A DNA stretch of 52,192 bases from the sequence record SRR22947725_2243; one strand, 5' to 3'. Shown here piece after piece: positions 16,584 to 33,323 of the stretch; the stretch's first letter is position 1; every line of letters starts with the position of its first letter. Both the position numbers and the translations under genes were made by a program. Under the pieces are notes generated by a model, which was not told the DNA's origin, searched no databases, and saw only the letters and a list, made by a program, of their open reading frames with translations.

Positions 16584-17344
16584 TGAATTGGTGGGGAAAA
16601 CTTATTGGGACCGGTGTAGGAATGCTTGGCGGGCCGATCGGTTTGATTGCCGGTGCTGCCCTGGGACACCTTTATGATGAGGATGATCCAACTCCTCAGG
16701 ATGAGCGTAAGGCTCGTATACTTTATCTCGCTTATTTTTTTTCCTGTGCTGCTAAAGTAGCGAAGGCAGACGGAGGTATTTCCGCAAATGAAATTGAAGT
16801 TACTGAATCATTAATACAAAGAATGGGGCTTGATGAGAAAACCGCGGAATTTGCCAAAAATGTATTTCGAAAAGCGAAGACCAGTCGACGCTCAGTCGAT
16901 GAAGATCTCAAAGAGGCGGGTCGCCTGATCGGATATGATCCGATCGTTGGACAGTCTTTTCTTGGGGGTCTTTTCGAAATTATTCGTTCCAATGGAAATA
17001 AACTTAACGAATTACAAGTTCGCTTTCTACTATACGGAGAAGAACGCCTTAAACTTAAACCGGGAACAGTTCGTTCATGGATACGCGGTGGGTATGCTCC
17101 ACCCCGGCAGGATCCTTCAGTTGACAGTTTATCCCTAGAAGGTGCCTACAACGCATTGGGCTTAAAGCAGGAGTGTAGTGAGAGGGAGCTCAAGAAAGCG
17201 TATCGTGCTAAAGCCGGAGACTTTCACCCAGATAAGTTAAAGAGCAAAAACTTACCGCAAGAGTTTTTAAACTTTGCTAATGATCAATTAACAAAAATTA
17301 ATCAAGCTTATGAAGTGATAAGCAAGGCTCGTGGGATCAATTAA
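16580..17344 (+). CDS. djlA: Co-chaperone DjlA (TerB-like + J domain)
   Basis: WWGKLIG..G...GGPIG..GA.LGH N-terminus, AKADG, C-terminal J domain with HPD; start may be ATG 16583. Confidence 0.9.
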   Translation: MMNWWGKLIGTGVGMLGGPIGLIAGAALGHLYDEDDPTPQDERKARILYLAYFFSCAAKVAKADGGISANEIEVTESLIQRMGLDEKTAEFAKNVFRKAKTSRRSVDEDLKEAGRLIGYDPIVGQSFLGGLFEIIRSNGNKLNELQVRFLLYGEERLKLKPGTVRSWIRGGYAPPRQDPSVDSLSLEGAYNALGLKQECSERELKKAYRAKAGDFHPDKLKSKNLPQEFLNFANDQLTKINQAYEVISKARGIN

Positions 17345-18014
17345 TAATAAGACCATCCCGGATCGAAATAATTTTGTCACATCGATTGGCGATCTCTTCA
17401 TTATGTGTAACCATTAATACAGCGATGTTCTGTTCCCTTGCTAGATTTTGTAACAGTTCGAAAACATTTTCAGAATTTGCAGAATCTAAATTGCCTGTGG
17501 GTTCATCAGCAAGTAACAATGCGGGAGAATTAACTAATGCCCGGGCAATTGCCACCCGTTGTTGTTCTCCACCAGATAGCTTGTTAGCAAAACGCTCCCT
17601 TTTGCTTTCTAAACCGAGTTTACAAAGTACATCACTTGCTTTTTCTAAGGCAATTTTTTTAGACAACCCTTTTTTTTGAGCTGGAAGAGACACATTTTCA
17701 ACTGCTGTTAATTCTTTTATTAAAAAATGAAATTGAAAAACAAAACCAATGGATTGGTTCCTTAGCATCGTTCGCTGTTCTTCATTCGATTTGGACATCT
17801 CTTTACCATCTATTATTATTTCTCCGGAGTCAGGTTGATCGAGTAAACCTAGTAAATAAAGAAGTGTGCTTTTGCCACATCCAGAGGGTCCTACAATTGA
17901 TGTTAACTCTCCTGCACTTGCTTCAAAGGAAACACCTCTAAGTGCATTTACTCTTTCATCTCCTTCTAAAAATGAATGGCTTAGGTCATGAACTTGTAAT
18001 AAGGGAATATCCAC
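17337..18014 (-). CDS. ABC transporter ATP-binding protein (LolD/MacB family)
   Basis: GPSGCGKST, GFVFQFHFL, LSGGEQQRVAIARAL, ADEPTGNLD, VTH. Confidence 0.9.
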   Translation of the reverse strand: MDIPLLQVHDLSHSFLEGDERVNALRGVSFEASAGELTSIVGPSGCGKSTLLYLLGLLDQPDSGEIIIDGKEMSKSNEEQRTMLRNQSIGFVFQFHFLIKELTAVENVSLPAQKKGLSKKIALEKASDVLCKLGLESKRERFANKLSGGEQQRVAIARALVNSPALLLADEPTGNLDSANSENVFELLQNLAREQNIAVLMVTHNEEIANRCDKIISIRDGLIIN

Positions 18015-19261
18015 TATATGCTTTCCCTAATAATTTTTGCCGGTTCAATTTTTGATGCTCTACGTGCAGGAATCCAACTGGCAACGCTCACAAATAGAGT
18101 GGCTAGTAAAACGGCACTCAAGTAATGTGAAATATCCCAATTTACCGCAAATTTGTCAGTGGAAAAAATTCCTCGTACACTTAATGGAATCTGTGAAATA
18201 ATGTAAGTTACGATCGCGCCTGAAATAACTCCTAATATGATTCCTGCAATCAGTACAATGGTACCTTGCCAGAGGAATACAGAAGATACGTCTCGGGGAG
18301 AAAACCCAATCGACCTGAGAATTGCAATATCTCGGGTCTTCTCTATTACCATAATCGCAAACACATTAAACATGCCTAATCCAGATAGTAAGAGGATACA
18401 GGAAACAGTTATCGCTGATGAAATTCGCAAGGCTTTAAATACATCCAACCAAACCTTTTCTCTTTCTTGCCAGCTAACAGTTCTATGTCCAATTGATTCT
18501 TGAATTTGTTTAGCAACATCCGGTGCATTATTTACATTTGATAACGCTAGTTGAAGTATAGAGCCTCCAAATCTCTTTCCAATTAAAGATCTTGCCGTTG
18601 AAAGATCAATATAGATACGTTTTTTATCAATCTCGCTCGCACCAGTTTCAAATATTCCAGAAACCCGTAATTGAAAGTTTTTCTTGGTTCCAACTAAGTT
18701 GACCCGTTCACCTAATTTAATATTAAGCCTTTGCGCGATCCGATAGCCTATCAAAATACCCATGCGATCTTTCTCAAAATTTTCAATCGATCCTTGAATC
18801 AATTGATTTTCAATATTTGAGACTTTAATGTGATCTTGAATTCTTAATCCATGCACTTGAACTGATTGACCACGAGAGTGAGAATTTAGTCTCCCAATAG
18901 TTTCGAGGATTTCAGAGATACCAATAACTGAAGGGAAATTCGAAAGGGACTCGATTATTTCTGCAGGATGGTCGATGCCTTCAATAAATCGAGAATTCTC
19001 CCTGTTTTTGAAAATAAAATGGGTTTTACCATCAGTTGATACTTTATTGATGGTCGACTCATTATCCTGAAATCTATCCGAAATGCGAATCGCCCCACTA
19101 GTACCTAAGATTGTATCAATAAAAACCTTTTGAAAGCCGGAGGTTTGTGCCTGACTAACAATAAAAAAAGCAATTCCAAATACTATCCCAAGTAAACTCA
19201 TCATCATCGTTCGCTTGCGCGAAAAAACATAACGCAATGCTAATTGACGAGATGGGCTCAC
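18014..19261 (-). CDS. ABC transporter permease (LolC/E-FtsX-MacB family)
   Basis: N-terminal TM, large periplasmic domain, EKTRDIAILRSIG, three C-terminal TMs, PARRASKIEP. Confidence 0.88.
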   Translation of the reverse strand: MSPSRQLALRYVFSRKRTMMMSLLGIVFGIAFFIVSQAQTSGFQKVFIDTILGTSGAIRISDRFQDNESTINKVSTDGKTHFIFKNRENSRFIEGIDHPAEIIESLSNFPSVIGISEILETIGRLNSHSRGQSVQVHGLRIQDHIKVSNIENQLIQGSIENFEKDRMGILIGYRIAQRLNIKLGERVNLVGTKKNFQLRVSGIFETGASEIDKKRIYIDLSTARSLIGKRFGGSILQLALSNVNNAPDVAKQIQESIGHRTVSWQEREKVWLDVFKALRISSAITVSCILLLSGLGMFNVFAIMVIEKTRDIAILRSIGFSPRDVSSVFLWQGTIVLIAGIILGVISGAIVTYIISQIPLSVRGIFSTDKFAVNWDISHYLSAVLLATLFVSVASWIPARRASKIEPAKIIRESI

Positions 19262-19267
19262 AAATCT

Positions 19268-20395
19268 TTAATGGATATGATTGGTTAGAATTGGCTTTAC
19301 CTTTTGCCCGTCGTTTAAAATATGCGGTGTCTCATATACTACAATATCACCGACTTTTAGTCCTTCCAAAATCTCTATACTTTTTAAGTTTCTAGCACCA
19401 ATCTTTACCGATCTTATAAACGCTTTTCCTTCCCTTACCACAAAAACAGAATTACCGATCAAGGACTTACTAGGAAGAAGTAAACGATCTTCTTTTTTAC
19501 TTTTTATTATTTCAACTCTTCCAGACATACCCGGTTGAACCATTTGAGTTGATTGCAGAGGTTCAAGATAGAGAAGTCTTCTTCCTGTGGAAGCATTTAC
19601 TGTCGGGGAAAGTCTGGAAACCTTTGCCTCTATGATTTGATTACCCCTTGAAAACAGAGATACTGCAGCAGTTAAACCCTCTTTAATTCCCACAAAATCA
19701 TCCTCATCTAACGATGCTACGATTAGCCGTTCATTTGAGATTATGGTTCCCAAATTATAGCCAAAAGAAATTAACTCCCCTCCTGACACATTAGAATTTA
19801 TCAATTGACCATCGATAGGACTTCTAATGGTCATTTTTTTAATTTGAGCTTTTAAATCTTCGATTCTAATTGAATGATTAATTAGTTTCTCGCTATCTGA
19901 AATTTTTTCTTGTTCAACTTCAATTTCTAAACGAGTTACAATATTCTTTTTCCTTTTTAGTTCAGCTAAGGTTATTTTTTCTGCATTAAAAAGTGCGGTT
20001 GATGCATTCAGTTCCTCTTTCTCAATTTCTAAGGTATTTGCGAATATGGAACCTTCATTAATTCTCTGCTCGAAATGATTTTTTTCCATTAAAGCTTTTT
20101 TAAGGCTACGATTTAAATCACTTATGTCCAATTGAACAAGAATCTGTCCTTTAACAACCGGAATCGCTTTGCTTAGTGGCTTTATGGCAACGAATTGCAC
20201 TAGACCTTGGGCATGAGATTTTAATTGAAAAGTCTGCTCTGCCAGAATTTGAATATTGCCAGTAACTGAATCTTTCATCGTTCCTTTAATTACTTTAGCA
20301 CAGAGCAATCTCTCCCCCTTAGACACGATAAAAAAACTAAAACCTGCGATTCCTAACAATAAACCTATAATGACTATCGATTTTATTTTAATCAT
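19268..20395 (-). CDS. Periplasmic adaptor (membrane fusion protein)
   Basis: N-terminal anchor, VVKGQILVQLD, coiled hairpin, IRSPIDG, PGMS, GLKVGDIVV. Confidence 0.85.
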   Translation of the reverse strand: MIKIKSIVIIGLLLGIAGFSFFIVSKGERLLCAKVIKGTMKDSVTGNIQILAEQTFQLKSHAQGLVQFVAIKPLSKAIPVVKGQILVQLDISDLNRSLKKALMEKNHFEQRINEGSIFANTLEIEKEELNASTALFNAEKITLAELKRKKNIVTRLEIEVEQEKISDSEKLINHSIRIEDLKAQIKKMTIRSPIDGQLINSNVSGGELISFGYNLGTIISNERLIVASLDEDDFVGIKEGLTAAVSLFSRGNQIIEAKVSRLSPTVNASTGRRLLYLEPLQSTQMVQPGMSGRVEIIKSKKEDRLLLPSKSLIGNSVFVVREGKAFIRSVKIGARNLKSIEILEGLKVGDIVVYETPHILNDGQKVKPILTNHIH

Positions 20396-21726
20396 TTCGG
20401 ATATTGTAGATGGAATTCGTATTTTTCTTTTACCTGAAAATAGGAAAAGACTGCTTGTATTAGACTTAACCTAGCTTTGGAAAGATCAAGTTTTGAGGAA
20501 AAATAGCTGCTATATGTTATTTGATTAATATCAAATTCAAGTTGGCTTTTTTCAAACCGGTTATTTGCAGTTGAAACAAGTTGCCTGGCAATATCAATTT
20601 GTTTTGCCAGGTTAAACATTTGTGATTGCAGACTATTCATTTCCAACCGAAGTCTTTTAGTATTACTTTCAAGTTGGATTTCAAACTGACGTTTTTTTGC
20701 TAATGCCAGTGATTTCATTCCCTTAGTGTAGGAAGAATCCCAAAGTGCCCAGTTAGCCTCAACACCTATAAGTAAGTTATTTCGTCTTACGGAATCTGCT
20801 TTGTTTGGCAGATCAATCTGATCCTGATAGAATCCACCGACTAAGTTAACTTTTGGTTTGAGATTCGAATCTGCTATTTTAACATTTTCTTTTTCTATGC
20901 TTATTTGACTTTTAAGTTCTTCAAGATTTTCAGATGAAATAGAACCAACCAGTTGTGGAATTCTTTTCCCAAACTCATGTTTATTGTAGAAGCTTTCAAA
21001 TTTCTCCGGGATATCAATTACTATTTCATTGTAGTAGCCTGTATCATGTTTGAAGTACGCTTTTTTGGATATTAAAAGACGATTAAATTCGGCAATTTTA
21101 ATAGATTGTTCTAGCTTTTCTATTGTTGCTTGACTGACCATTAATTCGGTAGCGAAGCCTAATTCTTTTCTTTTGATTAAGTCTTCTTCATTCTGTTCGC
21201 TTAGGGAGAGTGCATCTTTAGCAAGTTTTAATTGAAAATTCAAAAGCACAAGTTCCATAAACTCTGATTTTATCTGCGAAATTAAATTAGATTTTATCGC
21301 GTTAGTTTTCCTAACACCATATTCGGCTGACAGTTCTGCGATTCGACTCTTTGCCTTCAAACCTCCCCAATGATAAATTGGTTTTTTAACATAAATTGAA
21401 CCAACTGTTCGATAGCTTTGATCATAAGCTTGTCCCGGTCGATTTTCATGGATTGAATATCCACTTACATTCAAGTTAACTGATAAACCTTTTGCTGATT
21501 CAGCAACCATTTTATTTGAATTCGCTACCTTGCCCAGTTGTTTAGATTCACTAATCAAGGGTGCATTGTCATCCAAACTCTGAAAAATTACTGTTAAAAC
21601 AGGAAAGTAGGTTTCGATATCTTCCTCCGAGTGAAATAATTTTTTTCTATCTCCATAGACTGCCAAGGAGTAGGAAATCAACACAAGGAAGAGAATAAAA
21701 CGTGTTATACTAGTAAAAGAACTCAA
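20392..21726 (-). CDS. TolC-family outer membrane efflux protein
   Basis: Signal peptide, two helical repeats with PIY and P.V.L...GVEANWALWD strands; adjacent to MFP and ABC genes. Confidence 0.78.
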   Translation of the reverse strand: MSSFTSITRFILFLVLISYSLAVYGDRKKLFHSEEDIETYFPVLTVIFQSLDDNAPLISESKQLGKVANSNKMVAESAKGLSVNLNVSGYSIHENRPGQAYDQSYRTVGSIYVKKPIYHWGGLKAKSRIAELSAEYGVRKTNAIKSNLISQIKSEFMELVLLNFQLKLAKDALSLSEQNEEDLIKRKELGFATELMVSQATIEKLEQSIKIAEFNRLLISKKAYFKHDTGYYNEIVIDIPEKFESFYNKHEFGKRIPQLVGSISSENLEELKSQISIEKENVKIADSNLKPKVNLVGGFYQDQIDLPNKADSVRRNNLLIGVEANWALWDSSYTKGMKSLALAKKRQFEIQLESNTKRLRLEMNSLQSQMFNLAKQIDIARQLVSTANNRFEKSQLEFDINQITYSSYFSSKLDLSKARLSLIQAVFSYFQVKEKYEFHLQYPK

Positions 21727-21794: not shown

Positions 21795-22469
21795 CTAATT
21801 TTTGGAGGAACTTGTCAGATAAATGGACTGAAGAGCTTCGCCAATCCATTGATCTTTTTGATCATCGGTGTCTGATCTGATCGTTGCTACTTCATCTGTT
21901 GTTATTTCCCCAAAGTCATTTCCCCAAGCCTGCCTAACATAAGTTACTACATTAGCAATTTCTCTGTCGTCAATAGGAACCGCTGCCATATTGACTGCAG
22001 CAGATGTACCGTATTTTTCACCTTTAACAGTAATTTCTCCTTTTAATCCCTTTAAAATGATCTTAGTGATTAAAGCCGGATTTGCAGAAACCCATTCTGA
22101 ATCTGCTAATGGAGGATATTGATTTGGAATACCAAGACCGTTTGCTTGGTGACAAGAAGCACACCGAAGAGCAAAAATCTTTTTACCGGAGTCATATTTT
22201 CTTTCTAATCTCTGAGTTTCCTTTTCTTCATCCGATAATTCTACAATTTCTTGTGGAGGGTGAATTTGAAAACCATTTGTTGAATGTGCTAATTGTATCG
22301 AACAAACAAAGATCAAGCACCCAAACATAAATACGAAAATAAGGGGTGCGATAAGGAAACCCTGAGTGGGGGGATGTTTTTCACGATTAAGTTCCGAATG
22401 AACTTCAACCATATCATCATCATTCATTACATTACTATCTTCTAAGCTTTTTTTTGTCTTATTACTCAT
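21795..22469 (-). CDS. Membrane-anchored monoheme cytochrome c
   Basis: One TM segment, CASCHQANG.G...YPPLA.S.WV, distal Met (VNMAA), IANVVTYVRQAWGN. Confidence 0.9.
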   Translation of the reverse strand: MSNKTKKSLEDSNVMNDDDMVEVHSELNREKHPPTQGFLIAPLIFVFMFGCLIFVCSIQLAHSTNGFQIHPPQEIVELSDEEKETQRLERKYDSGKKIFALRCASCHQANGLGIPNQYPPLADSEWVSANPALITKIILKGLKGEITVKGEKYGTSAAVNMAAVPIDDREIANVVTYVRQAWGNDFGEITTDEVATIRSDTDDQKDQWIGEALQSIYLTSSSKN

Positions 22470-23578
22470 TTATCGGAATTTAGTTCTGCAGCAGTCCACA
22501 TTTGCATTTGTCCCCGATCTTTGACGAAGTCCCTTACATTAGCTACTTCCTCTGGGCTTACAGCAGATGCAGAATTACCCCAATCATTTCTAATGTATGT
22601 CAGTACATCAGCAATTTGCTGATCTGTTAAAGAACCTGGTGGTACTCCCGGGGCTATCATAACACCATTGTATTTATCACCATTAACTTCAATTTCTCCC
22701 ATTAAACCATGCATGCTAATTTTAATTATTCTTTCCTTGTCACCGAGCACCCAGTCAGAATCTGCAAGTGGAGGGAATGCACCTGGTAGACCTAAACCAG
22801 TGGGTTGATGGCAGGATACACACCCTCCCCCGCCTGGACCGACTTTTGTGTAAATTTCTTTTCCGGATGAAATTTGGTCCGCTAACCAAGTCGGTAATTG
22901 AGTTGAGGTCGTTGGGGCTGCAACAAGTTCCGATGCATCCGTTTCCTCCTCCTCCACGAAACTCATCTCAGGCAATTCATAATCTTGACGAAGTTCTTGA
23001 AGGTAAGCTACAATACGGTTTGCTTTAATTCGTGGTTTTACGAGTCTTGTTCTGTTATCTTCTGAGATAATTTGTATAGAGCCAGATACATTAGAGTCCT
23101 TAATGTCATAGAGAAAAGGGCTCGGCGGACAAATTGATTTTTCATTTAAAGATTGTGGTTCGAAAAGGTGTTGGTGCAACCATTCATCCGAATATTCTCT
23201 CATTCCAAGGTTCGCTAAATCAGGACCTACTCTAGTATTTCCTATATTTACTTCATTCTGCAAAATATAATCTCTCGCGACCGAAGGTCTTTTTCCCCAA
23301 CCTCTTTCCACATCAAAACCAGCTTCAACTAATCGGACTTGTTGAGTATGGCATGTGGCACAACCAAGAGATAGATATTCGACGGCACCTTGTTGAGCAA
23401 CACCAGAAAACGCAACAGGATATAAATCAGAATCCTCTGGTATATTTCCATCCTCGTTTAAAACAGATGAAGTGGGAGATAAATCTCCAAATTGCTTGCG
23501 GGCACCTACTACAAAGGCAAGCCAAGCAACTGCGAGTGTGGTGAAAATTCCAAATGAAAATTTAAAAATATTATTCAT
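22466..23578 (-). CDS. cbb3 subunit II (CcoO)-like domain fused to a second cytochrome c (diheme)
   Basis: GCATCHTQQVR, RVGPDLA, WLHQHLFEP typical of CcoO; second domain CVSCHQ..G.GLPGAFPPL...YNGVM. Confidence 0.85.
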   Translation of the reverse strand: MNNIFKFSFGIFTTLAVAWLAFVVGARKQFGDLSPTSSVLNEDGNIPEDSDLYPVAFSGVAQQGAVEYLSLGCATCHTQQVRLVEAGFDVERGWGKRPSVARDYILQNEVNIGNTRVGPDLANLGMREYSDEWLHQHLFEPQSLNEKSICPPSPFLYDIKDSNVSGSIQIISEDNRTRLVKPRIKANRIVAYLQELRQDYELPEMSFVEEEETDASELVAAPTTSTQLPTWLADQISSGKEIYTKVGPGGGGCVSCHQPTGLGLPGAFPPLADSDWVLGDKERIIKISMHGLMGEIEVNGDKYNGVMIAPGVPPGSLTDQQIADVLTYIRNDWGNSASAVSPEEVANVRDFVKDRGQMQMWTAAELNSDK

Positions 23579-24987
23579 ACTGTAGAAGCCTTAGATGCAA
23601 ACTTTTTACTTCTTCCCGTATTTTCAAAAGGGTTAGGGACAAGAACCTTCCAAATATTGATTACAAACACCAATTGTGAAAAGCCTAGTATGATAAATGA
23701 AATTTCGGTGATTAGAAAATAGGGTTGAATTGAAGCAATAACAGAGTTTGTCCAGTCAAGAGCAGGTTGTTGGGCCAAAACACCATGAGTTAAACCACCA
23801 ATTAGATAAGCCAGTAACAGCATCATGACACCCAAGGCTGAGGTCCAAAAATGGAATGATTTTGCAGATTTGGTAATTTCTTTTCCTGTAATTTTGGGAA
23901 GCATGTGATACACCGCACCAAAAACAATCATACTGAAAAATCCATAAACGCGTTGGTTGAAGTGAAACTCATTAATGATAGAAAATTGGGTCAATTTGGC
24001 TACTGAAGGAAGCGAAAAGATAACCCCAATGTAACTTGATATTGTATATGAGAGAGTACCGAAAATAACAAATCTAAGGGGTAAACTACTCCATACTTTA
24101 TCTATATCTTTAAATGCAGTGGCATGAAAATTTGTTGAGGCAACAGCTATGGGGAAAATCATTGCAATGCTCATAACTGTCCCAATAGCAGGTATCCACA
24201 TTGGTACAGGTCCACCTTCTAAGTGATGCACGACAGACCAAGGGGCAAGAGTTGCTATACACCAAAACCCAAAAATTGCTAAATAATACTTATCGATTGG
24301 CTTACCAATAATCGAAGGAATTATGTAATAAGCTACACCGAGAGCAAAAGGCGTGAGCCAAAGCCAAATTAAATTTTGTCCAAACCACATTGAAAGAACA
24401 CTCTGAACCGTTCCTGGTGAAGGATTAATTTCAAGACCATTCCAAGCGATTAAGAAAAGTGCAGGGAACCACAAGATGGCAGCAAGTATGAACCATTGGG
24501 GGGCAATCGTGTCTGGGTATTTACGAGAGCGATGGAGCACAATAATCAAGCAAGTAATGATTGCGTATGAGATAAAAAGCAGTGGCCAAACCTCATTAGG
24601 CATTTCAAGCATTTCATGAGAATTCATGTGTCCATCCAAAATACCAAGGAGACCAAATGTTATTCCGAGATTCCATAATACTCCTGATGTAATAAGCAAT
24701 ACTCGTCCTCTAACCTCAGCTTGGGATAATCTAGCAATAATCCATATGCTTATTGCAAAAATTGAATTTCCACCCCAACCATAAACAAAGGCATTTGCTT
24801 GAGCTATTTTCACTTTTCCGTAAGTGAAGTATTCGAAAGATGAAAGAAAAAAAGGATCTGTTAATTTAGCAGCGGCAATGTAAGCGAGGAGTGCGGCGGC
24901 AAGTAACCACAAACCGGCAGAGGCAATAAAGAAAGAAACCACCCATTTTGCGGACTTGTCTATCACTTGTTCGTCAGTAAGTTTCAC
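23575..24987 (-). CDS. Heme-copper oxidase subunit I homolog (cbb3 CcoN-like), degenerate active site
   Basis: About 12 TM helices, collinear with CcoN motifs (TYG...NA, WFGQN, YYIIP, HHL, LRF, YHMLPK, HFW), but key His/Tyr residues replaced. Confidence 0.85.
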   Translation of the reverse strand: MKLTDEQVIDKSAKWVVSFFIASAGLWLLAAALLAYIAAAKLTDPFFLSSFEYFTYGKVKIAQANAFVYGWGGNSIFAISIWIIARLSQAEVRGRVLLITSGVLWNLGITFGLLGILDGHMNSHEMLEMPNEVWPLLFISYAIITCLIIVLHRSRKYPDTIAPQWFILAAILWFPALFLIAWNGLEINPSPGTVQSVLSMWFGQNLIWLWLTPFALGVAYYIIPSIIGKPIDKYYLAIFGFWCIATLAPWSVVHHLEGGPVPMWIPAIGTVMSIAMIFPIAVASTNFHATAFKDIDKVWSSLPLRFVIFGTLSYTISSYIGVIFSLPSVAKLTQFSIINEFHFNQRVYGFFSMIVFGAVYHMLPKITGKEITKSAKSFHFWTSALGVMMLLLAYLIGGLTHGVLAQQPALDWTNSVIASIQPYFLITEISFIILGFSQLVFVINIWKVLVPNPFENTGRSKKFASKASTV

Positions 24988-24994
24988 TTTTGGA

Positions 24995-25294
24995 TTATTG
25001 GTCTTTATTTGGTTTGGGACGGTAAGATTCAGTAATTTTTTTCATTACTGATTCGAGGCTAGAATTTTTTTCGTTATGGAAATTAATAATTTTTGATTCA
25101 AAAATATTAGAATCATTTTTGAACTCCATGATTTTTTTACTTCTTTGGTCCGAAATCATACTTTGGGATTCAACATTATTTTCCTCATCAAAATACACTT
25201 GAAATAAAAAATAAGCTGATACCAAAATGATACCAATGATAAGTGAGAAAAACACACTACATCCATCTGCACGCTGTAATTTAGGATCACTCAT
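24995..25294 (-). CDS. Small single-TM protein, possible ActG-like accessory subunit
   Basis: 99 aa, one TM, overlaps the actF stop, sits where actG occurs in ACIII operons. Confidence 0.55.
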   Translation of the reverse strand: MSDPKLQRADGCSVFFSLIIGIILVSAYFLFQVYFDEENNVESQSMISDQRSKKIMEFKNDSNIFESKIINFHNEKNSSLESVMKKITESYRPKPNKDQ

Positions 25295-26564
25295 GATGGT
25301 TTAAAGAGTCTAAAATTCTTGGGTCTCTCACGGGAATTAACTCAGCAACGTTTGAATTGAAGCTTTGTCGTACGGCACGCACACATAAACATCCAACCCC
25401 TATTAGGGTGGAAATCCCCCAAAATAAATGGAATCCAAGTACAGGACGGGCTTCGTATCCGACATATGCACCAGGAACAATCTCACGCCCCGGAATAATG
25501 TTCCAGTACAGGTCAAGCAGATGAAAAGCTAATATCCAAAGTGCAATAAAAGCAATTCGACCCCCGTTGATTTTATTCTTGTAGAAAAGTAAGTAGAGAA
25601 AAGGAAAGAAAAAGTGTCCAAAAATTAATCCCATGCTTACCCAAAACCAAGCTGAAGTTTCTCCTGTATTGGGGTTAATTTCTCTAATATTATACCAAAA
25701 TGTTTCTTCTGGAATGTTCGCACTGTAGATCAAGAAATATTGAGAAAAGCTAATATATGCCCAAAAAACGGTAAATGCTAAGGAAAGACAGGCTAGATCA
25801 TATTGATGGGCCTGTTTGTAAATACCGGTGAGGGTACCCTTTTTGAGAAGGAAAAGGCATCCCAAGATGGTGATTGCGAGTGCAGCTCTTATTCCCGATG
25901 AAAAAAACCAAACTCCATACATTGTGGAGAACCATTGATATTCTAAACTCATGAACATGTCAAAAGCACCAAAGGTGAGAGCCAATGCCGTAGCGGGAAT
26001 ACCTATCGCTGAGACTTTCATACCGAGATGTGACCATTTTGGGTCACCATCTTGGTCTTGTGTAAACGAAACTTTTCTCATCCAATAGCTAAGACCGCAA
26101 AAAACTGCGAAGTATAAAATGATCCGTAAACTAAAAAAATAAAGGTTCAAATAGCCCGCTTTCTTTTGATGGAGAACATCTGTTGCAACAGTTATACCAT
26201 CAACTGTTGGACTATCTGGGTTGATCCAAGACCATAAAATGCCAGCGTTATCTCCCCCAAATAAAGCCACAAGTAATAGAGGAGCAATGCAAAGACCTAA
26301 CCACGGAAAAGCCGCAAGTCCATGCTCCAATTGTCTCCTTACCACTGGTGTCCATCTCGAATTAAAAACTCTGAAAATCATGACTAACATTAACATCCCA
26401 ATTGCAATGCTTAGCCAAAACGAGCAACCCCATAACCATCCAAGGAAGGGTGCTTTATCACCGCTTGAAAGTCCCAAGAATAATCCAACTAAACCAATTG
26501 CTAATCCAAGAACAGCACCGGCAAGTAATTTTAAATCAGTATCTTTTTTGGCAACCTCACTCAT
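25287..26564 (-). CDS. actF: Alternative complex III subunit F
   Basis: Polytopic membrane protein with K..YLN..FF..R, D..MSLE..WFSTMYG, FWAYISFSQY.LI..ANIPEET.WY; position in the act operon. Confidence 0.88.
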   Translation of the reverse strand: MSEVAKKDTDLKLLAGAVLGLAIGLVGLFLGLSSGDKAPFLGWLWGCSFWLSIAIGMLMLVMIFRVFNSRWTPVVRRQLEHGLAAFPWLGLCIAPLLLVALFGGDNAGILWSWINPDSPTVDGITVATDVLHQKKAGYLNLYFFSLRIILYFAVFCGLSYWMRKVSFTQDQDGDPKWSHLGMKVSAIGIPATALALTFGAFDMFMSLEYQWFSTMYGVWFFSSGIRAALAITILGCLFLLKKGTLTGIYKQAHQYDLACLSLAFTVFWAYISFSQYFLIYSANIPEETFWYNIREINPNTGETSAWFWVSMGLIFGHFFFPFLYLLFYKNKINGGRIAFIALWILAFHLLDLYWNIIPGREIVPGAYVGYEARPVLGFHLFWGISTLIGVGCLCVRAVRQSFNSNVAELIPVRDPRILDSLNHHE

Positions 26565-27223
26565 GATTTCTTATCAATTCCATTGGTAGCATCGCTCACA
26601 TAGCTTTGTAGTGCTCGTAAGTATAGTACAATTGCCCATCGCTCACGAGGAGTGAGTTTGTCTTTCAGTCCAAGCATTATCCCGGAAGCAGAACCCATTG
26701 CAATTGCATTGTAGATTTGTCCGTCCGACCATGGTGCTGCTGATTCTAAGTAAGATCCGGATTGAGATGAATCTGACAGGTTACGCGGTGCTAACCCAAA
26801 ATAAGAGGTGACTCCTTTTCCATCTCCATAATCGCCGTGGCAAACAGAACAGTGAATATCATATTTCTCTCTTCCCAAACGCATCAAATCGATATTAATA
26901 CCTAATTCATTAGGTATTTTACTGAGCCATTTCCCATTTGAATCCTTACCAGTTTTGATCGAATCAATGAGAAACTTAGGTGTGGCAGAAAAAACATTGT
27001 TTTGAGTAATTAAGTTACCACGAATGGCAGTACCAATAACAGGTAAACGATCCGCCCGATTGTCCCCAAAAAAAGGATTTTTGGTTTGTGACTTGTATTT
27101 AGCTTGCCTGTCCATGTCAGGAAAGACCTCAATTGGAGTATTTTCAGTGAAGTCTCCACGAAATCCCAAAATGGAAATGATACTTCCTACAACAATAATA
27201 AATATCGGAATGAAATATTTCAT
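26561..27223 (-). CDS. actE: Alternative complex III subunit E (monoheme cytochrome c)
   Basis: FPDMDRQAKYK.Q..N.FF.D.R.DR.PV.GT, CSVCHG, ERWAIVLYLRALQ. Confidence 0.88.
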   Translation of the reverse strand: MKYFIPIFIIVVGSIISILGFRGDFTENTPIEVFPDMDRQAKYKSQTKNPFFGDNRADRLPVIGTAIRGNLITQNNVFSATPKFLIDSIKTGKDSNGKWLSKIPNELGINIDLMRLGREKYDIHCSVCHGDYGDGKGVTSYFGLAPRNLSDSSQSGSYLESAAPWSDGQIYNAIAMGSASGIMLGLKDKLTPRERWAIVLYLRALQSYVSDATNGIDKKS

Positions 27224-27774
27224 TGATCAATAGGTTCACGAATTACAGTTATTGATTTCCCGCCAATAGTTTTGAGAAACTTAGGGGTATCCTCATCATC
27301 AAATTTAGCATCTTCGATCTCGATCACTATCATATATTTATCATCTCCTGTCCTTCCAAAAGAAGGATGCTCAAAAATTGGATGGTTGTGTTGAGGTAAA
27401 CGATTCAGGAAAAACATGCCAAAAAGGGTACCAAAAGCAGCAAATAGTATTGTCAACTCGTAGAATACAGGAAACGGATAAATCATGCTGAAATAAGGCT
27501 TCCCACCGACTATCAGTGGATAATCAAATGCATTCATGTACCAAACAATTAAAATACCTGTGAAAAAACCAGTAACTCCTCCTGCAAGAGTAAAGCATGG
27601 CACTTTAGATCGCCCTACCCCCATTTGCGCATCTAATCCATGCACAGGAATAGGAGTATAACATTCCCAATCCTTAAAACCTTCTTCTCGTACTTTACCT
27701 GCTGCATCAAATAAATCTTTTGCCGAGTTAAAAGTTGCAGCTACTCCATATTTAATATCCATGAGTTTACTCAT
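27220..27774 (-). CDS. actD: Alternative complex III subunit D (DUF3341)
   Basis: YTPIPVHGLD, DYPLIVGGKP, P..YELTILFAA. Confidence 0.9.
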   Translation of the reverse strand: MSKLMDIKYGVAATFNSAKDLFDAAGKVREEGFKDWECYTPIPVHGLDAQMGVGRSKVPCFTLAGGVTGFFTGILIVWYMNAFDYPLIVGGKPYFSMIYPFPVFYELTILFAAFGTLFGMFFLNRLPQHNHPIFEHPSFGRTGDDKYMIVIEIEDAKFDDEDTPKFLKTIGGKSITVIREPIDQ

Positions 27775-27780
27775 AACAAA

Positions 27781-29202
27781 TTAATGCTTACCTCCATGGG
27801 GATCAGCAGCAGGCATTACTGATTTAACTTCTGCCATTGGCATAAGAGGTAGGAAACGAAGAAAGAGAAGAAAAAGTACAGAAAAGAAACCAAATGTTCC
27901 AACAAATGTAAAGATGTCTACTATTGAAGGAGAATAATAACCCCAACTTGAAGGTAAAAAATCACGCGATAGAGTGGTGTTTGCAATCACAAATCTCTCA
28001 AACCACATTCCAATGTTTACAAAGATGGAAATAATCCAAACCAATGGAATGTTGTTCTTGATAGCTTTGAACCAGAAAAGCTGCGGGCAAATAACATTGC
28101 ATGAAACCATAATCCAATAAGCCCACCAATAATTTCCGAATGCACGATTTATAAATGCAAATCCTTCATAGGAATTGGCTCCATACCATGCAATAAAGAA
28201 CTCCATCGCATAAGCATATCCAACCATACTTCCAGTGGCCAATATGATCTTACACATGTTATCAATGTGCTTTTCAGTGATGAGGTCATGGAGCCGAAAA
28301 ATAGCTCTCAAAGGCAGTAATAAGGTAAGCACCATTCCAAAACCAGAGAAAATGGCACCCGCTACAAAATACGGTGGGAAAATTGTGGTATGCCAACCAG
28401 GTAAATTTGCGACTGCAAAGTCGAATGAAACGATCGTATGTACAGACAAGACTAAAGGAGTTGAAAGTCCTGCAAGTAACAAATATGCCATTTCAAAATT
28501 TCGCCAATGGTTATTTGCATTTCGCCAACCCATAGCAAGAACACCATAAAAATATTTCCTCCAAGTTTCTTTTGCTCGATCCCTTAGTACGGCAAGATCA
28601 GGAATCATTCCCATGTACCAAAATAAAATTGAAACGGTTGCGTAGGTTGAAACTGCAAATACATCCCATTCAAGAGGACTTCGGAATTGTGGCCAAATAG
28701 CATTAGCGTTTGGTATGGGAAATAACCACCATGCAAACCAAACCCGTCCCACGTGGAATAAGGGAAAGATGCCAGCACACAACACGGCAAATACAGTCAT
28801 GGCTTCAGATGCCCGATTAATTGATGTTCTCCATTGTTGCTTCAAGAGGCAAAGAACGGCTGAAATAAGTGTTCCAGCGTGTCCAATTCCTATCCAAAAA
28901 ACGAAATTTACAATTGCCCAACCCCAATTTACCGGATTGTTGTTACCCCATACACCAACTCCAGTGGAAACGAGATAGATTAATCCCATACCGGTGAAAC
29001 TTGCTACACAAAGTGCAGTTATAAAACAATACCACCACCAAGTCGGGGTTTTTTGCTCTACGATTCCACAAATCTTTTCAGTGACCCAACGAAAACTTCT
29101 GTTGTTTAATACTAATGGAACATCCTCCCATTTCGCAGGATTAACCTTCTTCATTAGTTCGGGAGCTATTTCATCCCCGTGCTCTTTAATATCAGACGAC
29201 AT
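27781..29202 (-). CDS. actC: Alternative complex III subunit C (NrfD/PsrC family, quinol site)
   Basis: [87 protein letters not shown]. Confidence 0.95.
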
Positions 29203-32200
29203 TTAGTGAGATTCTCCTTCACTTCCATGATCATCATATGCATCTTCGCCGTGGTGAACAGGATGTGCTTTGTCATGGTATTCACGAGCAGAATGAGGAG
29301 AAGATGCGAAATCAGGCATATTATGATTTGGATTCCGGACTTTAGCCAAAAATGTGGTCCTCGGACGTGTGTTAAGATAACCCAAAACTGAATAGTCACG
29401 CGGATTATTCTTAAGACGACTCACTTCGCTATCCGGATCAGATAAATCTCCAAAACTTATACTATCACTTGGGCAAACTTGTTGGCAAGCTGTTTTGATT
29501 GTACCGTCGGGCACTTTAATATCACTTTCTTTTAACACAATATCTGCTCCATCCTTACCAGTTTCTAATAAAGCTTTTCTTTGTGCCTTTATTTTAACTT
29601 GGATTTTCGACTCTTGTATCCTTTGAACACAATAGGTACATTTTTCCATTACTCCGCGCATACGGACGGTGACATCTGGATTTTTGCCCATATCTGGAAG
29701 TGGGTCATTTTTCTTACCCAAAGGTCCTTTATACAGTTCATCGGTTTGGCGTTTATTCCAATCGAAAAAGTTAAACCTTCTCACCTTGTAAGGACAATTA
29801 TTCGCACAATAGCGGGTACCGACGCATCGGTTGTAAGCCATTGCATTAAGACCTTCTTCATCATGCACAGTTGCATTTACGGGGCATACTGTTTCGCATG
29901 GTGCGGTTTCACAATGCATGCAGGCAACACCTTGGAATGAAACTTGAACATCGGACGGTAATTCTGCCCCATCTCGTGCTGTTGAACTAAAATATCGATC
30001 CAACCTGATCCAATGCATTTCTCGACCTCTCAAAACTTGGTCTTTTCCTACAATTGGAATGTTATTTTCACTCTGGCATGCAACGACGCAGGCACTACAA
30101 CCTGTGCATTGATTTAAATCAATTGCCATACCCCACTGGTGTAAACCGGGGGTTTCAGATTTCTCATAATTATGATCCGGGTGCTCATAAGAAGAATTTC
30201 CCCGTGGAGTAGTTTGAGCTTTAAATTTAAGATCAGCCTCTTGGTCTTTTCCCCAAATTTTAGGTGAATGGGATTCAGCTCCCATGTGAGAAGCAAATGC
30301 TTCGTCGGAAATATACTCCTCTGCGTTCCCCTCTCGTACAATTGCTCTTCCTTCCATGGACCAATGTTCTTGTACATTTGCGAGTGTTTCAAATTCACCA
30401 GTAGGTTGAATAGAAACATTGGATACGATTCGGTCGAAATTATTACCGAGTAGAGGATAGGCATTATATCCAGTCCCGTTGCCTACTCGACCAACTTCTG
30501 TCCTACCAAGTCCAAGACTTGCAATAATACTACAATCAGCTAACCCGGGCTGAACATAGAGAGGACCTTCAATGGTTTGATCTTCACTTAATGAAAGTGT
30601 AACAATAGGTGCTTTTTGCTTACCATGATCAAAGTTAGCCGCATCCGGTGCAATTTCACCATTCTTGTTTAGCATTGTAGGTTCTGGAAGAAGACCTAAG
30701 GACGGATATTTTTCTTCAAGGGTCTTGGCTAATGCTGGGCTTATTAAAAGAGCATTATCCCAAGTCAATTTGGAGATAGGGTCAGGACATTCCTGCATCC
30801 AACCATTGTTTGTGTAACGACCGTCCCATGCATGAAAATCTGGGATCAGTAAGACTTCTAAACTATCTAAAGTGGGCGGTTTTGGTATCTGTTCTTTATA
30901 TTTACTTAATTCTGAAAGCGGAATTTCCTTCGAATAGTAAGTTGGCATTTGTTTTTCAACACCCAGTCTTAAGAAATCTTCATAAGAATCAGTAGAAGAG
31001 CGTTTTTCTTGGAGAGATTTTACAAAGTCATGGGTATTTTGAGAAGAACCTAACAACAATTGGAGTAACTCTAAATCTGCCATCGTTTCAAAAAGGGGAG
31101 CAAGCAAGGGTTGGACAGGAACAATTCCGGTTCCATCCCATGTCTCTCCTTCATCCCAAGATTCTAAATAATGGGACTGACCAATATGATAATCGCAAAT
31201 AGAAGTAGTTTCATTTACCGAATCACCGAGGTGGATTTTATTTGAAATCTTATCTGATAAATTTTCCCAGTCCAATGAGCTTGCATTGTGAACAGGGTTA
31301 CCACCTAAAAATATAAGTGTTTTTACATTATCTTTACCAATTTCTTCCTGTAGGGACAACAAGTTTGAGGCTGGTTTATCAGTAACCTGATATTGCACCG
31401 TTCGCCCGATACAACCTAGTGCTTGGTTGATAGCATAGCAAAGTAAATGAACTTCTGCGGGTAAATGACTGCCGGGTAAAATAACACTTGATTTGTGCTT
31501 GGAACATAGATCAACCGCACACTCCCTGATCCATTTTGCATGGGTTTTTAATACATTACCTCTTTCTTGAAGCCGTGTGACCTCGGCTTTAGATCCACTT
31601 TTTCTGATTGTGAAAATTTCTGCGGCAAGCAAGTTAGCAAATGCAATAAACTGAGAAGATTCGAGGCGTAACCTGTGATCTGCCACTCCACCCGTAATCG
31701 TCAGGTCAGACTCCACGCTGTAAAGACGATTCATCTTTTGGGCGTCCTTGGCAGAGAGAACTTTCCTCCCTTTCATTAACGCACGGGTATTCGCAAGTGA
31801 AAATGGTTCTCGGTTTCCTAGGAAATCACAATCCAATGATAACACACGAGATGCCTTACCCAAATTGGGAATCAACCGCAGGCCGCCATCTGTTCCAATT
31901 GCATTACCTAATTTGTTTTCGGGGGAAGTGAGATCAATTGCTTCATGTTCCGTCCAAATAACACCCTTTTCAATTAACAACTCAGAAAGAACTTTTCTTG
32001 CAGTTGAACTTGATTTTTCAGCAAGGATCGCAACCTTACCTTCTTTCATCAGGTTAACCAAATCTTCTTTGACTTGATCCGAAGAAATGACATCCCAAGA
32101 GTCTTCATTTTCTTTAGATCGTTTAAGAGAAGTCTTGCTTCTGTCGGGATCGTAGAGATCTAAGACGCTAGCTTGTGCGTAAATAGAAGTACCACCACCG

Positions 32201-32586
32201 TTGGGGATGTAACTAGGGTTTCCTTCGATTTTAGTTGGACGACCTTCGTGACTTTCAACAATTAACGGTGTGTGACCTTGTGCACTAGGCATTGAGGTTG
32301 CGTAGTAATTGGGTACGCCGGGGATAAGTTCCTCAGGACTTTTACCATAAGGCAATATAGTATGTTCTGGTCTTCTACAACCTGTCATGCCCAATCCTGC
32401 AAGACCGAACGAAGCGGCCATTAATTTCATGAATCCTCGTCTTTGGACGCCTTCGAGCATGCTAGCTCCTTCCGGGAATTCTCTTTCTACCCAATTTTTA
32501 AAACTTGGCTTGCAAGCTAGATCATCGAGACTTTTCCAGTAACGCTTTCCGTTCTCTAAGGTTTCTTCGGTCACTTGTTTAATCAT
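29203..32586 (-). CDS. actB: Alternative complex III subunit B (molybdopterin-oxidoreductase-like domain + Fe-S domain)
   Basis: YWKSL, EREFPEGA, Tat motif RRGFMKLM...GC, EGRPTKIEGN, Fe-S motifs CTGCSACVVAC, CMHC..APC..VC, CVGTRYCANNC, CTYC...CQQVC; start placed at ATG 32586 (ATGA overlap with actA). Confidence 0.95.
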   Translation of the reverse strand: MIKQVTEETLENGKRYWKSLDDLACKPSFKNWVEREFPEGASMLEGVQRRGFMKLMAASFGLAGLGMTGCRRPEHTILPYGKSPEELIPGVPNYYATSMPSAQGHTPLIVESHEGRPTKIEGNPSYIPNGGGTSIYAQASVLDLYDPDRSKTSLKRSKENEDSWDVISSDQVKEDLVNLMKEGKVAILAEKSSSTARKVLSELLIEKGVIWTEHEAIDLTSPENKLGNAIGTDGGLRLIPNLGKASRVLSLDCDFLGNREPFSLANTRALMKGRKVLSAKDAQKMNRLYSVESDLTITGGVADHRLRLESSQFIAFANLLAAEIFTIRKSGSKAEVTRLQERGNVLKTHAKWIRECAVDLCSKHKSSVILPGSHLPAEVHLLCYAINQALGCIGRTVQYQVTDKPASNLLSLQEEIGKDNVKTLIFLGGNPVHNASSLDWENLSDKISNKIHLGDSVNETTSICDYHIGQSHYLESWDEGETWDGTGIVPVQPLLAPLFETMADLELLQLLLGSSQNTHDFVKSLQEKRSSTDSYEDFLRLGVEKQMPTYYSKEIPLSELSKYKEQIPKPPTLDSLEVLLIPDFHAWDGRYTNNGWMQECPDPISKLTWDNALLISPALAKTLEEKYPSLGLLPEPTMLNKNGEIAPDAANFDHGKQKAPIVTLSLSEDQTIEGPLYVQPGLADCSIIASLGLGRTEVGRVGNGTGYNAYPLLGNNFDRIVSNVSIQPTGEFETLANVQEHWSMEGRAIVREGNAEEYISDEAFASHMGAESHSPKIWGKDQEADLKFKAQTTPRGNSSYEHPDHNYEKSETPGLHQWGMAIDLNQCTGCSACVVACQSENNIPIVGKDQVLRGREMHWIRLDRYFSSTARDGAELPSDVQVSFQGVACMHCETAPCETVCPVNATVHDEEGLNAMAYNRCVGTRYCANNCPYKVRRFNFFDWNKRQTDELYKGPLGKKNDPLPDMGKNPDVTVRMRGVMEKCTYCVQRIQESKIQVKIKAQRKALLETGKDGADIVLKESDIKVPDGTIKTACQQVCPSDSISFGDLSDPDSEVSRLKNNPRDYSVLGYLNTRPRTTFLAKVRNPNHNMPDFASSPHSAREYHDKAHPVHHGEDAYDDHGSEGESH

Positions 32587-33323
32587 CGGTGGCATCCAGT
32601 ACAGCTTAGGGGAGGATTAACACCCCATTTATTTTTGATATCCAGTCCAGCGTGAAATTGCGTAATGTGAGAATCTTCTTCCTCTTTCGATGCAATAGAC
32701 CAAGCTAAGTTAGTGACTTCATTCATCGGGCGAAGTGATTTCTCAGGGTTTCGATGGCATTCTAAACAAAATGCCATGCTGAGAGGTTTGTCGTGATGGA
32801 CAACTTCCATCTGGTCAATTCTGCCATGACATTCCACGCAACTCACTCCGCGGTTCACATGTATCGCATGATTGAAATAAACATAATCTGGAGCCTTGTG
32901 TATTCGAACCCATGGTACAGAGGGTCCCTCGTTTAAAATTCCATCATCATTCAAGTCTTCCCCTTCGGACAGCTTGCCGTCCTTATTTTCATCCTCTCCG
33001 AAATAAGAATCACGAATTGGAGCGAGTAAAGGGGAATCCGCTTTAATGTTCTTATGGCAGGACATACAGACATTAGCAGATGGGATGTTGGCATGTGACG
33101 ATTTATCAACGCCGTGATGGCAATAACGACAATCGAGACCCAATTGACCAGCATGAAAACTGTGGTCGTAAGAAACCGGTTGAGTAGGTTGATACCCAAC
33201 TCTTGTATATTTTGGTGTTGCATAGTAAGTGATGCCTGCGGTTACTGTGCCTCCAATAATACCCAAAGATAAGATAACTTTAACTGGTATCGTATTTACC
33301 CATCTAGGAAAAAGATTTCTCAT
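32583..33323 (-). CDS. actA: Alternative complex III subunit A (pentaheme cytochrome c)
   Basis: Five CxxCH motifs (CRYCH, CMSCH, CVECH, CLECH, CTGCH), GYQP.QP..Y.H..HAG, PDYVYFNH, N-terminal TM. Confidence 0.94.
   Translation of the reverse strand: MRNLFPRWVNTIPVKVILSLGIIGGTVTAGITYYATPKYTRVGYQPTQPVSYDHSFHAGQLGLDCRYCHHGVDKSSHANIPSANVCMSCHKNIKADSPLLAPIRDSYFGEDENKDGKLSEGEDLNDDGILNEGPSVPWVRIHKAPDYVYFNHAIHVNRGVSCVECHGRIDQMEVVHHDKPLSMAFCLECHRNPEKSLRPMNEVTNLAWSIASKEEEDSHITQFHAGLDIKNKWGVNPPLSCTGCHR

Follow-up and report, generated by a model that had tools for sequence, protein, structure and literature searches.

A cbb3-type subunit I homolog with replaced ligands

We analyzed a stretch of 52,192 nucleotides from sequence record SRR22947725_2243 (hereafter the window, meaning the whole of this stretch), which hosts a gene for a homolog of CcoN, the subunit I of cbb3-type, or C-family, heme-copper oxidases (HCOs). 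The gene lies within an operon for alternative complex III (ACIII) of the Verrucomicrobiota type. It occupies an open reading frame (ORF) at 23575-24987 on the minus strand, with a GTG start and no internal stop, and encodes a CcoN-like protein of 470 amino acids. The protein matches the Pfam family COX1 (PF00115) over residues 17-429 (E 2.2e-42, 145.9 bits, cut-off 34.8), and its top match in the PDB, obtained with phmmer, is the CcoN of Pseudomonas stutzeri (3mk7_A, E 5.5e-34, query residues 17-449 on chain residues 14-459), to which it is around 24% identical. Against the NCBIfam ccoN equivalog TIGR00780 it scores 127.6 bits, below the cut-off of 583.15. An earlier note, drawn from the letters of the DNA alone, had described an intact, full-length ORF with a dismantled heme-copper center, and PF00115, phmmer and MAFFT all confirm this description.

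We read the ligand positions from the HMMER alignment to 3mk7_A. In P. stutzeri CcoN we take His60 and His347 to be the ligands of heme b, His345 the ligand of heme b3, His207, His257 and His258 the ligands of CuB, and Tyr251 the cross-link tyrosine. Both axial His positions of the low-spin heme b are replaced in the CcoN-like protein, with Gln63 aligned on His60 and Asn344 on His347. Two of the three CuB ligands are kept (His254 and His255 on His257 and His258), and the third has become Gln204 (on His207). The cross-link Tyr251 is matched by Ala248, as in all 50 copies compared below. The proximal His of the high-spin heme b3 is kept as His342 (on His345), and the adjoining Glu323, presumably the hydrogen-bond partner of that His, has become Ile320. 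Arg437, which we take to be a heme-propionate partner, is matched by Thr427, while Lys58 and Lys60 stand on Arg55 and Arg57. The ligand columns are identical in MAFFT alignments of the protein with its canonical relatives, defined here as those with all six His and the Tyr. Every detail of the four replacements and three retained His listed in the earlier note is thus borne out by both sets of columns, and its codon coordinates follow from the start of the ORF, with residue n at 24987-3(n-1).

Other changes surround these sites. Canonically conserved glycines near them have become Trp208, Val252, Arg346 and Phe431, and Ser237, presumably a channel residue in its canonical form, has changed to Ala. 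Glu125 and Glu128 are retained in the window's clade; from the phmmer alignment, their P. stutzeri equivalents are presumably members of the Ca/propionate site. The alignments place no other His at the ligand positions. The protein has ten His in all (120, 124, 152, 254, 255, 288, 342, 361, 379 and 401), and none of the ten falls in helix II (model helix 56-88), which we take to be the carrier of the first low-spin heme ligand. Realignment therefore cannot restore a bis-His low-spin heme site.

Heme-copper O2 and NO reductases need a low-spin heme to feed the binuclear center, and the O2 reductases also need a His-Tyr cofactor. Since four of the seven defining residues are gone, conventional O2 or NO reduction would be excluded by what is known of HCOs, which supports the same conclusion in the earlier note. 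From its residues, the CcoN-like protein is very unlikely to respire oxygen. In the available text of PMC11214002, all known HCO families of O2 and NO reductases keep their heme ligands, and gNOR, the most deviant, changes a single active-site His.

The predicted fold is that of a subunit I. With an 84-row alignment as input, AlphaFold2 gives a model that shows the expected helices with high confidence (mean pLDDT 93.1, pTM 0.92). When the model was compared with the PDB by Foldseek, seven CcoN chains ranked first (TM 0.88-0.90, root-mean-square deviation 1.7-2.8 A, 21-24% identity), from structures that include 3mk7, 9g6b, 8smr and 6xkw, followed by the NorB subunit of cNOR (TM 0.79-0.81) and then by A- and B-family subunits I. 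The model thus predicts that the complete 12-helix subunit I fold is kept.

The ligand-poor state is widely conserved among close relatives. A word-indexed protein search returned 120 relatives, and when they were aligned with the query in MAFFT, 82 of the 121 rows had the same seven residues; the others comprise ten fragments consistent with this state, one row with Asn254, 12 canonical rows and a remainder that is otherwise ligand-poor. A scan of species-representative genomes located 56 loci at 70-98% identity to the CcoN-like protein, which come from metagenome-assembled genomes (MAGs) or single-cell genomes of marine Opitutales or Opitutia, one of them titled Candidatus Chordibacter forsetii. 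The CcoN-like gene is a single intact frame in 49 of the 56 loci, cut by contig ends in five, split in one and run on in another, so that 49 of the 51 loci not interrupted by a contig end have it intact. In L087 the gene is split into two overlapping frames, and in L062 the frame runs on at the C-terminus to 569 residues; either may be an assembly error or a real variant.

The 49 intact loci and the window give 50 full-length copies, of which 49 share the seven-residue pattern. His255 and His342 are present in all 50 copies and His254 in 49, the lone exception being L077, which has Asn254, again through an assembly error or as a real variant. At each of the seven codons we found synonymous variation (CAA/CAG, four GCN, AAT/AAC and CAT/CAC). 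The ratio of nonsynonymous to synonymous substitution (dN/dS, NG86 method) has a median of 0.033 and a range of 0.013-0.057 in the window's clade, as measured on the 24 of 1,225 pairs with 0.05 < dS < 1.5; nearly all remaining pairs, which fall outside that range, are saturated in dS, and their proteins are still at least 69% identical. Three close pairs of canonical relatives (dN < 0.05) have ratios of 0.013, 0.028 and 0.036. Canonical pairs at larger divergence, with dN/dS of 0.2-0.39 and dS under 1, were set aside as artifacts of saturation or codon bias. Since the values are similar in the two groups, the ligand-poor protein is as constrained as its active relatives.

The earlier note had proposed looking for a conserved pattern with dN/dS well below 1, and this is what we observe, in 49 of 50 copies and at a ratio of about 0.03. 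Conservation and purifying selection of this kind confirm that the gene of the window is neither a decaying allele nor a sequencing artifact. The invariance of the seven residues is a different matter. As many as 230 of 444 alignment columns (52%) are equally invariant in the window's clade, which rules it out as proof of special selection and points to constraint on the protein rather than to special selection for Gln, Gln and Asn.

Ligand loss in Verrucomicrobiota and in a sister genus

We searched 301 genomes of Verrucomicrobiota with the CcoN-like protein. Matches at E <= 1e-10 occurred in 92 genomes, and in 68 the best match reached E <= 1e-57. All 68 were typed, namely the nearest genome to the window (G001), whose protein is identical to ours, 29 loci, seven further genomes and another 31 loci. 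Five more loci, typed alongside the seven genomes, were left out of the total as their genomes were in it already. The full set of six His and Tyr is present in 41 of these 68 ACIII-linked copies and incomplete in 27. Among the 27 ligand-poor copies, whose retained His we counted by eye from the alignments, three His are kept by the type of the window, against none to two in each of the other 26. This difference suggests that the window's clade is an intermediate. The canonical relatives in other Opitutales families are 37-43% identical to the CcoN-like protein, closer to it than P. stutzeri CcoN is, and have six His and the Tyr in 29 of 29 cases. The earlier note had allowed that close relatives might have all six His; such relatives do exist at this distance, but at 69-98% identity all relatives share the derived ligand-poor state.

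An exhaustive HMMER search of cluster representatives gave a similar picture. A threshold of E <= 0.001 admitted 1,476 proteins and one of E <= 1e-30 admitted 271, and we counted His in the 129 full-length proteins among the best 150 representatives. None of the six His positions is kept in 74 of these proteins, one in 38, two in 11, three in one (the window's type), four in one (P0124) and all six in four. The window's clade is thus the least dismantled form seen, with the exception of P0124. Where present, the source annotation reads 'cbb3-type cytochrome c oxidase subunit I', with Opitutales, Opitutaceae, Prosthecobacter or Verrucomicrobiota as the organism. When a single protein from the largest of the ligand-poor clades served as query, a scan located 12 loci, mostly titled Pedosphaera, Limisphaerales and Chthoniobacterales. 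Three loci, L101, L104 and L110, are titled as MAGs of Haliangiales, Akkermansia muciniphila and Bifidobacteriaceae and carry a Verrucomicrobiota-type operon of ACIII and ligand-poor CcoN; their other-phylum titles are probably due to mis-binning.

Every genome that we examined has one ACIII-linked copy, which indicates that the ligand-poor forms replace the canonical ones in place and are not extra paralogs. Two canonical CcoN proteins among the relatives from the word-indexed search, P0104 and P0106, are named from the Alphaproteobacteria Roseixanthobacter and Pelagibacterium and are 32-33% identical to the query. They are closer to it than is P. stutzeri CcoN, and the ACIII-linked subtype of the C-family may therefore extend beyond Verrucomicrobiota.

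The proteins closest to the window's clade in phylogenetic trees are P0123 and P0272, which join it with a support of 100 (FastTree on 145 rows and a quick IQ-TREE run on 53 rows). The backbone is otherwise unresolved in both trees, and neither gives a count of independent ligand losses. P0123 and P0272 come from another genus of the same family (g150; genomes G302 and G307), in which the gene is intact and the proteins are 69-71% identical to the nearest cluster representative, P0123. Gln204, Ala248, Asn344, Trp208 and Gln334 are common to the window's clade and this sister genus, and Glu323 and Arg437 are lost in both. The sister genus additionally lacks His254, His255 and His342, and has Ser, Phe or Cys at position 63.

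We compared the two lineages at 127 positions, each conserved to at least 90% across 38 canonical sequences. Both lineages keep 64 of these positions and both have lost 27. A further 21 are kept in the window's clade only, comprising the three His together with Thr212 and Tyr314 (which we take to be the equivalents of cbb3 proton-channel residues), Ser273, Ser318, His288, Trp242, Tyr348 and others. The 15 positions kept only in the sister genus are mostly conservative swaps. The shared replacements suggest that the common ancestor had already lost the low-spin heme site, one CuB ligand and the Tyr. Judging from the residues that differ, the sister genus would later have emptied the rest, while the window's clade seems to have held a half-site and several nearby polar residues for a long time. 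The family thus preserves both of these successive stages, from which the order of events can be read.

These comparisons do not support one proposal of the earlier note, which had read the replacement of His by Gln, Gln and Asn as selection for a new role, possibly a novel chemistry. By the genetic code, one base change suffices to turn His into Gln or into Asn, position 63 is Ser, Phe or Cys in the sister genus, and more than half of the columns are as invariant as the three amide residues.

The ACIII operon and the terminal oxidase

The CcoN-like gene is one of ten genes that lie on one strand, with ends that overlap or almost abut, all in the minus direction. The operon opens with ActA, a multiheme cytochrome c (32583-33323; Pfam Cytochrome_C7 and Cytochrom_CIII), whose homologs in the sister genus have five CxxCH motifs. 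It is followed by ActB, with fused molybdopterin-like and 4Fe-4S domains (29203-32595; Pfam Fer4 families, and NCBIfam matches to QrcC-like at 2.6e-51 and to the TAT-variant signal TIGR04519), by the NrfD-like, quinol-binding membrane subunit ActC (27781-29202; Pfam NrfD, 6.5e-23) and by ActD (27220-27774; Pfam ActD PF11821, 1e-62). A monoheme cytochrome c with one CxxCH occupies the ActE position (26561-27223; Pfam Cytochrome_CBB3 and Cytochrom_C). ActF, the next ACIII membrane subunit (25287-26564), matches ActF of Rhodothermus (R.) marinus in phmmer (6f0k_F, 1.1e-46). These assignments support the earlier view of a C-family subunit I homolog in a Verrucomicrobiota ACIII operon.

The actF and CcoN-like genes are separated by a small ORF of 99 amino acids with one hydrophobic stretch (24995-25294), for which we found no match in Pfam or NCBIfam. 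Close relatives have a homolog in this position wherever their locus extends that far, and one sister-genus locus has a weakly matching one; other lineages have a gap of 300-700 bases at this position. From its size and place, the product could be an ActG- or CcoQ-like small subunit.

Two cytochrome genes follow the CcoN-like gene. The first encodes a CcoO-like subunit of 370 amino acids (22466-23578; Pfam FixO at 6.9e-16 and Cytochrom_C), the start of which overlaps the CcoN-like stop by 4 bases. Its residues 57-158 match CcoO in the PDB (3mk7_B, 2.4e-10), and residues 224-349 form a fused second class-I cytochrome c domain, which matches the cytochrome c domain of Cu nitrite reductase (5e-24) and Thermus c552 (7e-16), also in the PDB. 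This second heme-c domain is found in the window's clade only, where CcoO has two CxxCH motifs versus one in the other lineages compared. The second gene encodes a membrane-anchored monoheme cytochrome c of 224 amino acids at a CcoP-like position (21795-22469; Cytochrom_C 4e-12, Cytochrome_CBB3 1.5e-07), which has one CxxCH and is conserved 3' of the CcoO-like gene in related loci.

Up to the limits of the contigs, all 56 close-relative loci share the order actABCDEF, small ORF, CcoN-like gene, CcoO-like gene and cytochrome c gene. The core order of actF, CcoN-like, CcoO-like and cytochrome c recurs in 12 of 12 loci from complete genomes, in 12 loci of another ligand-poor clade (again to contig limits) and in 31 of 31 further loci. 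Among the canonical loci, ActF is upstream in 28 of 29, the exception (L022) being cut, and a CcoO-like gene is present in 29 of 29. The partner subunits retain their CxxCH motifs in canonical and ligand-poor operons alike. The sister-genus operon is the same as that of the window, with a CcoO-like subunit that has a single heme-c motif.

Several other genes flank the operon. Genes for TolC-, HlyD-, MacB/LolCE- and LolD-like proteins of an ABC efflux set lie directly after the cytochrome c gene on the minus strand (17337-21726), a position that is kept in the 56 close relatives, to contig limits, and in the sister genus. A gene for an FAD-dependent oxidoreductase of 738 residues (33580-35796, plus strand; PF12831, 4.9e-56), with a weak C-terminal match to F5/8 type C, is divergent from actA. 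The rest of the window carries genes for thiamine synthesis, RuvA, DapA/B, LepA and 2-oxoglutarate dehydrogenase, and these housekeeping genes indicate that the window is chromosomal DNA.

We then asked which terminal oxidase the same organisms encode. For statements at the genome level we rely on G001, which has 76% of sampled words in common with the window, is 86% complete and has a CcoN-like protein 100% identical to that of the window. It contains two PF00115 matches, the CcoN-like gene and, on another contig, an A-family COX1 of 529.5-531 bits. Around this COX1 lie SCO1/SenC, CtaB, COX2, COX3, COX4 and Caa3_CtaG. COX2 has the CuA motif and a C-terminal CxxCH, which identifies the oxidase as being of the caa3 type. 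A PF00115 match is present in 59 of the 61 genomes examined from the family, the usual set being one A-type match of about 530 bits and a weak CcoN-like one of about 140 bits. Many other Opitutales have a further, weaker PF00115 match in an open frame of about 800 residues, which, from its length and match, we take to be a fused CcoNO oxidase. One genome of the family, G349, has two TGA stops inside its A-type COX1 match (C1:4575-5840), and another fragment interrupted by stops comes after it; the oxidase gene may be broken there, or the assembly at fault. FixH (PF05751) was above cut-off in none of 151 Opitutales genomes, including those with canonical copies. It is therefore uninformative as a marker of cbb3 cofactor assembly.

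A gene of the cbb3 type is commonly taken as a sign of high-affinity respiration at low oxygen. Among the genomes of this abundant family of marine Opitutales we found one complete heme-copper oxidase only, the caa3 type. Given that 27 of the 68 ACIII-linked copies are ligand-poor as well, metabolic reconstructions may overstate the oxygen affinity of such organisms.

Interpretation and comparison with known systems

The reading that we prefer, with a probability of roughly 55%, is that the CcoN-like protein acts as a redox-dead or nearly dead scaffold for a heme-c relay from ACIII to the caa3 oxidase. It would be the relic of a C-family (cbb3-type) catalytic subunit that became genetically tied to ACIII in Verrucomicrobiota. 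The ancestor of the marine Opitutales family would have lost the ligands of the low-spin heme b, one CuB His, the Tyr, Glu323 and the propionate-partner Arg. What remains, a 12-helix protein, would dock, next to ACIII, the heme-binding, CcoO-like diheme subunit and the monoheme cytochrome c. Menaquinol would supply electrons, which would travel by way of the hemes of ActA and ActE to these three extra c hemes, and from this relay to the caa3-type terminal oxidase encoded elsewhere, whose subunit II bears its own cytochrome c domain. We infer the loss of activity, the physical binding of the subunits and the route of the electrons from the arrangement and state of these genes.

Three observations lead us to this scaffold: the protein is conserved like an enzyme, its gene lies between actF and two cytochromes that keep their heme motifs, and copies free of His occur in dozens of lineages. 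The wider picture, in which dozens of lineages have the gene at the same operon position with none to two of the His, likewise favors a structural relic. A relay to caa3 has a parallel in the available text of PMC5928083, which describes ACIII clusters followed by oxidase clusters, and supercomplexes of ACIII and caa3 with direct electron transfer.

Some of our data weigh against a mere scaffold. His254, His255 and His342 are kept in the window's clade across divergence that is saturated in dS, unlike in the 26 other ligand-poor copies, and 18 further canonical residues are kept here that the sister genus has lost together with the three His. The retained His and polar residues look like a site still under selection. 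The second heme-c domain gained on CcoO is not obviously needed by a relic, and for subunits with membrane helices of their own, a protein of 12 helices makes an expensive anchor.

The main alternative, a residual single-heme or metal site with a new role, we consider possible, if rather unlikely. It holds that the window's clade keeps a high-spin heme on His342, facing a reduced pocket of His254, His255 and Gln204 with or without a metal, and that the lengthened heme-c wire feeds it slowly, either for detoxification of peroxide or NO or for gas binding or sensing that tunes ACIII. The near-complete retention of His254 (49 of 50 copies) and the complete retention of His255 and His342 despite saturated dS fit this proposal, as these positions vary freely in other ligand-poor lineages. 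So do the 21 canonical residues, the three His and polar residues of the active-site region among them, that this clade has kept and the sister genus has lost, with only 15 going the opposite way, mostly as conservative swaps. The retained Glu125 and Glu128 and the heme-c domain gained in this clade alone argue in the same direction. However, the low-spin heme that would deliver the electrons is without both of its ligands, and Glu323 and Arg437, presumably the partners of the proximal His and of the propionate, have become Ile and Thr. The glycines changed to Trp208, Val252, Arg346 and Phe431 suggest that the pockets are filled. With 52% of columns equally invariant, the invariance of the His proves little by itself; one species (L077) has Asn254, and the sister genus lives without the site in the same operon. 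The earlier note had also suggested a reduced heme or metal site or a sensor role, which may hold for the window's clade, though the wider picture favors a structural relic.

In its most far-reaching form, this alternative describes a one-heme protein, with a high-spin heme on His342 under a His254/His255/Gln204 pocket, no low-spin heme and no Tyr radical, fed by a wire of three c hemes attached to ACIII. We regard such a protein as doubtful. If it did exist, it would be a new HCO-derived enzyme or gas sensor, for example one that binds peroxide, NO or O2, and its clade would be a long-frozen evolutionary intermediate from which the sister genus went on to an empty shell.

A role independent of redox chemistry seems improbable. 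Here the 12-helix bundle would be kept for a membrane function, such as a proton or ion pathway, or as a partner that stabilizes or regulates the ActC/ActF membrane arm, with the cytochromes being secondary. It would account for the very strong constraint over the whole length (dN/dS about 0.03), for the 64 of 127 canonical positions that neither the window's clade nor the sister genus has lost, and for the position of the gene right after actF in all loci that reach there. We know of no HCO subunit I that moves ions without a redox center, and Ser237, presumably a channel residue, has become Ala. In favor of such a role, ACIII itself has been proposed to pump protons through ActC and ActF (available text of PMC5928083).

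That the protein is a working O2 or NO reductase, binding its hemes and copper through other residues, is highly improbable: the fold is predicted to be intact and relatives are annotated as 'cbb3-type cytochrome c oxidase subunit I', but helix II is without His, four of the seven defining residues are replaced, the NCBIfam ccoN score is 127.6 bits against a cut-off of 583, and the HCO families described in the available text of PMC11214002 keep their heme ligands. A slowly decaying pseudogene, or an artifact of assembly or sequencing, which canonical relatives within the same order and the one split (L087) and one run-on (L062) gene among 56 loci might have suggested, is already refuted by the intact frame in 49 of 51 uncut loci, by a dN/dS of about 0.03 and by a state that is identical down to 69% identity.

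The scaffold that we favor would be a membrane-bioenergetic pseudo-enzyme under selection of the same strength as its active relatives, and it raises the question of what ACIII needs from an oxidase partner besides catalysis. In the openly accessible full-text literature we found no published description of a ligand-poor CcoN beside ACIII. In the available text of a 2026 paper that describes the genome of an Opitutales isolate, the three genes that come after actABCDEF are given simply as cytochrome c oxidase (PMC13274419). We file the protein under a known kind, as a pseudo-enzyme from the superfamily of heme-copper oxidases. New here are the three-His intermediate state, the order of loss in two steps within a family and the second heme-c domain on CcoO.

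Among known systems, the nearest is CcoN itself (3MK7/5DJQ, 9G6B, 8SMR and 6XKW), which gives the best PDB sequence match and shares the 12-helix fold predicted for the protein of the window. The genes are also arranged alike, with subunit I followed by a CcoO-like heme-c subunit and a further membrane cytochrome c, and both proteins have the proximal His of the high-spin heme and two CuB His. Unlike CcoN, the protein of the window is without the low-spin heme ligands, one CuB His, the Tyr, Glu323 and Arg437, and unlike the CcoN encoded by ccoNOQP, its gene sits inside an ACIII operon. This place, after actF and before the CcoO-like and cytochrome c genes, is shared with the canonical ACIII-linked C-family oxidases, which keep six His, the Tyr and one heme-c motif on CcoO, whereas the window has three His and two motifs. 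The ACIII-linked CcoN relics with none to two His in other Verrucomicrobiota have the same operon, fold family, database name and heme-keeping partners; the window's clade differs from them in its three retained His, all of the former binuclear center, and in the second heme-c domain of its CcoO.

The NorB/NorC pair of cNOR (3O0R) has a related fold and a heme-c partner subunit. NorB keeps six His and adds a Glu for FeB (available text of PMC11214002), while three of these His are replaced in the protein of the window, which thus does not have the NorB set of six His and the FeB Glu. Finally, in R. marinus and Flavobacterium (F.) johnsoniae the oxidase genes follow those for ACIII, and electrons pass directly to a cytochrome c borne by the caa3 oxidase (available text of PMC5928083). 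The caa3 oxidase of G001 carries such a cytochrome c domain. Unlike in R. marinus and F. johnsoniae, where a working A-family enzyme adjoins ACIII, the place next to ACIII here is taken by a C-family shell poor in ligands, and another contig encodes the working caa3 oxidase.

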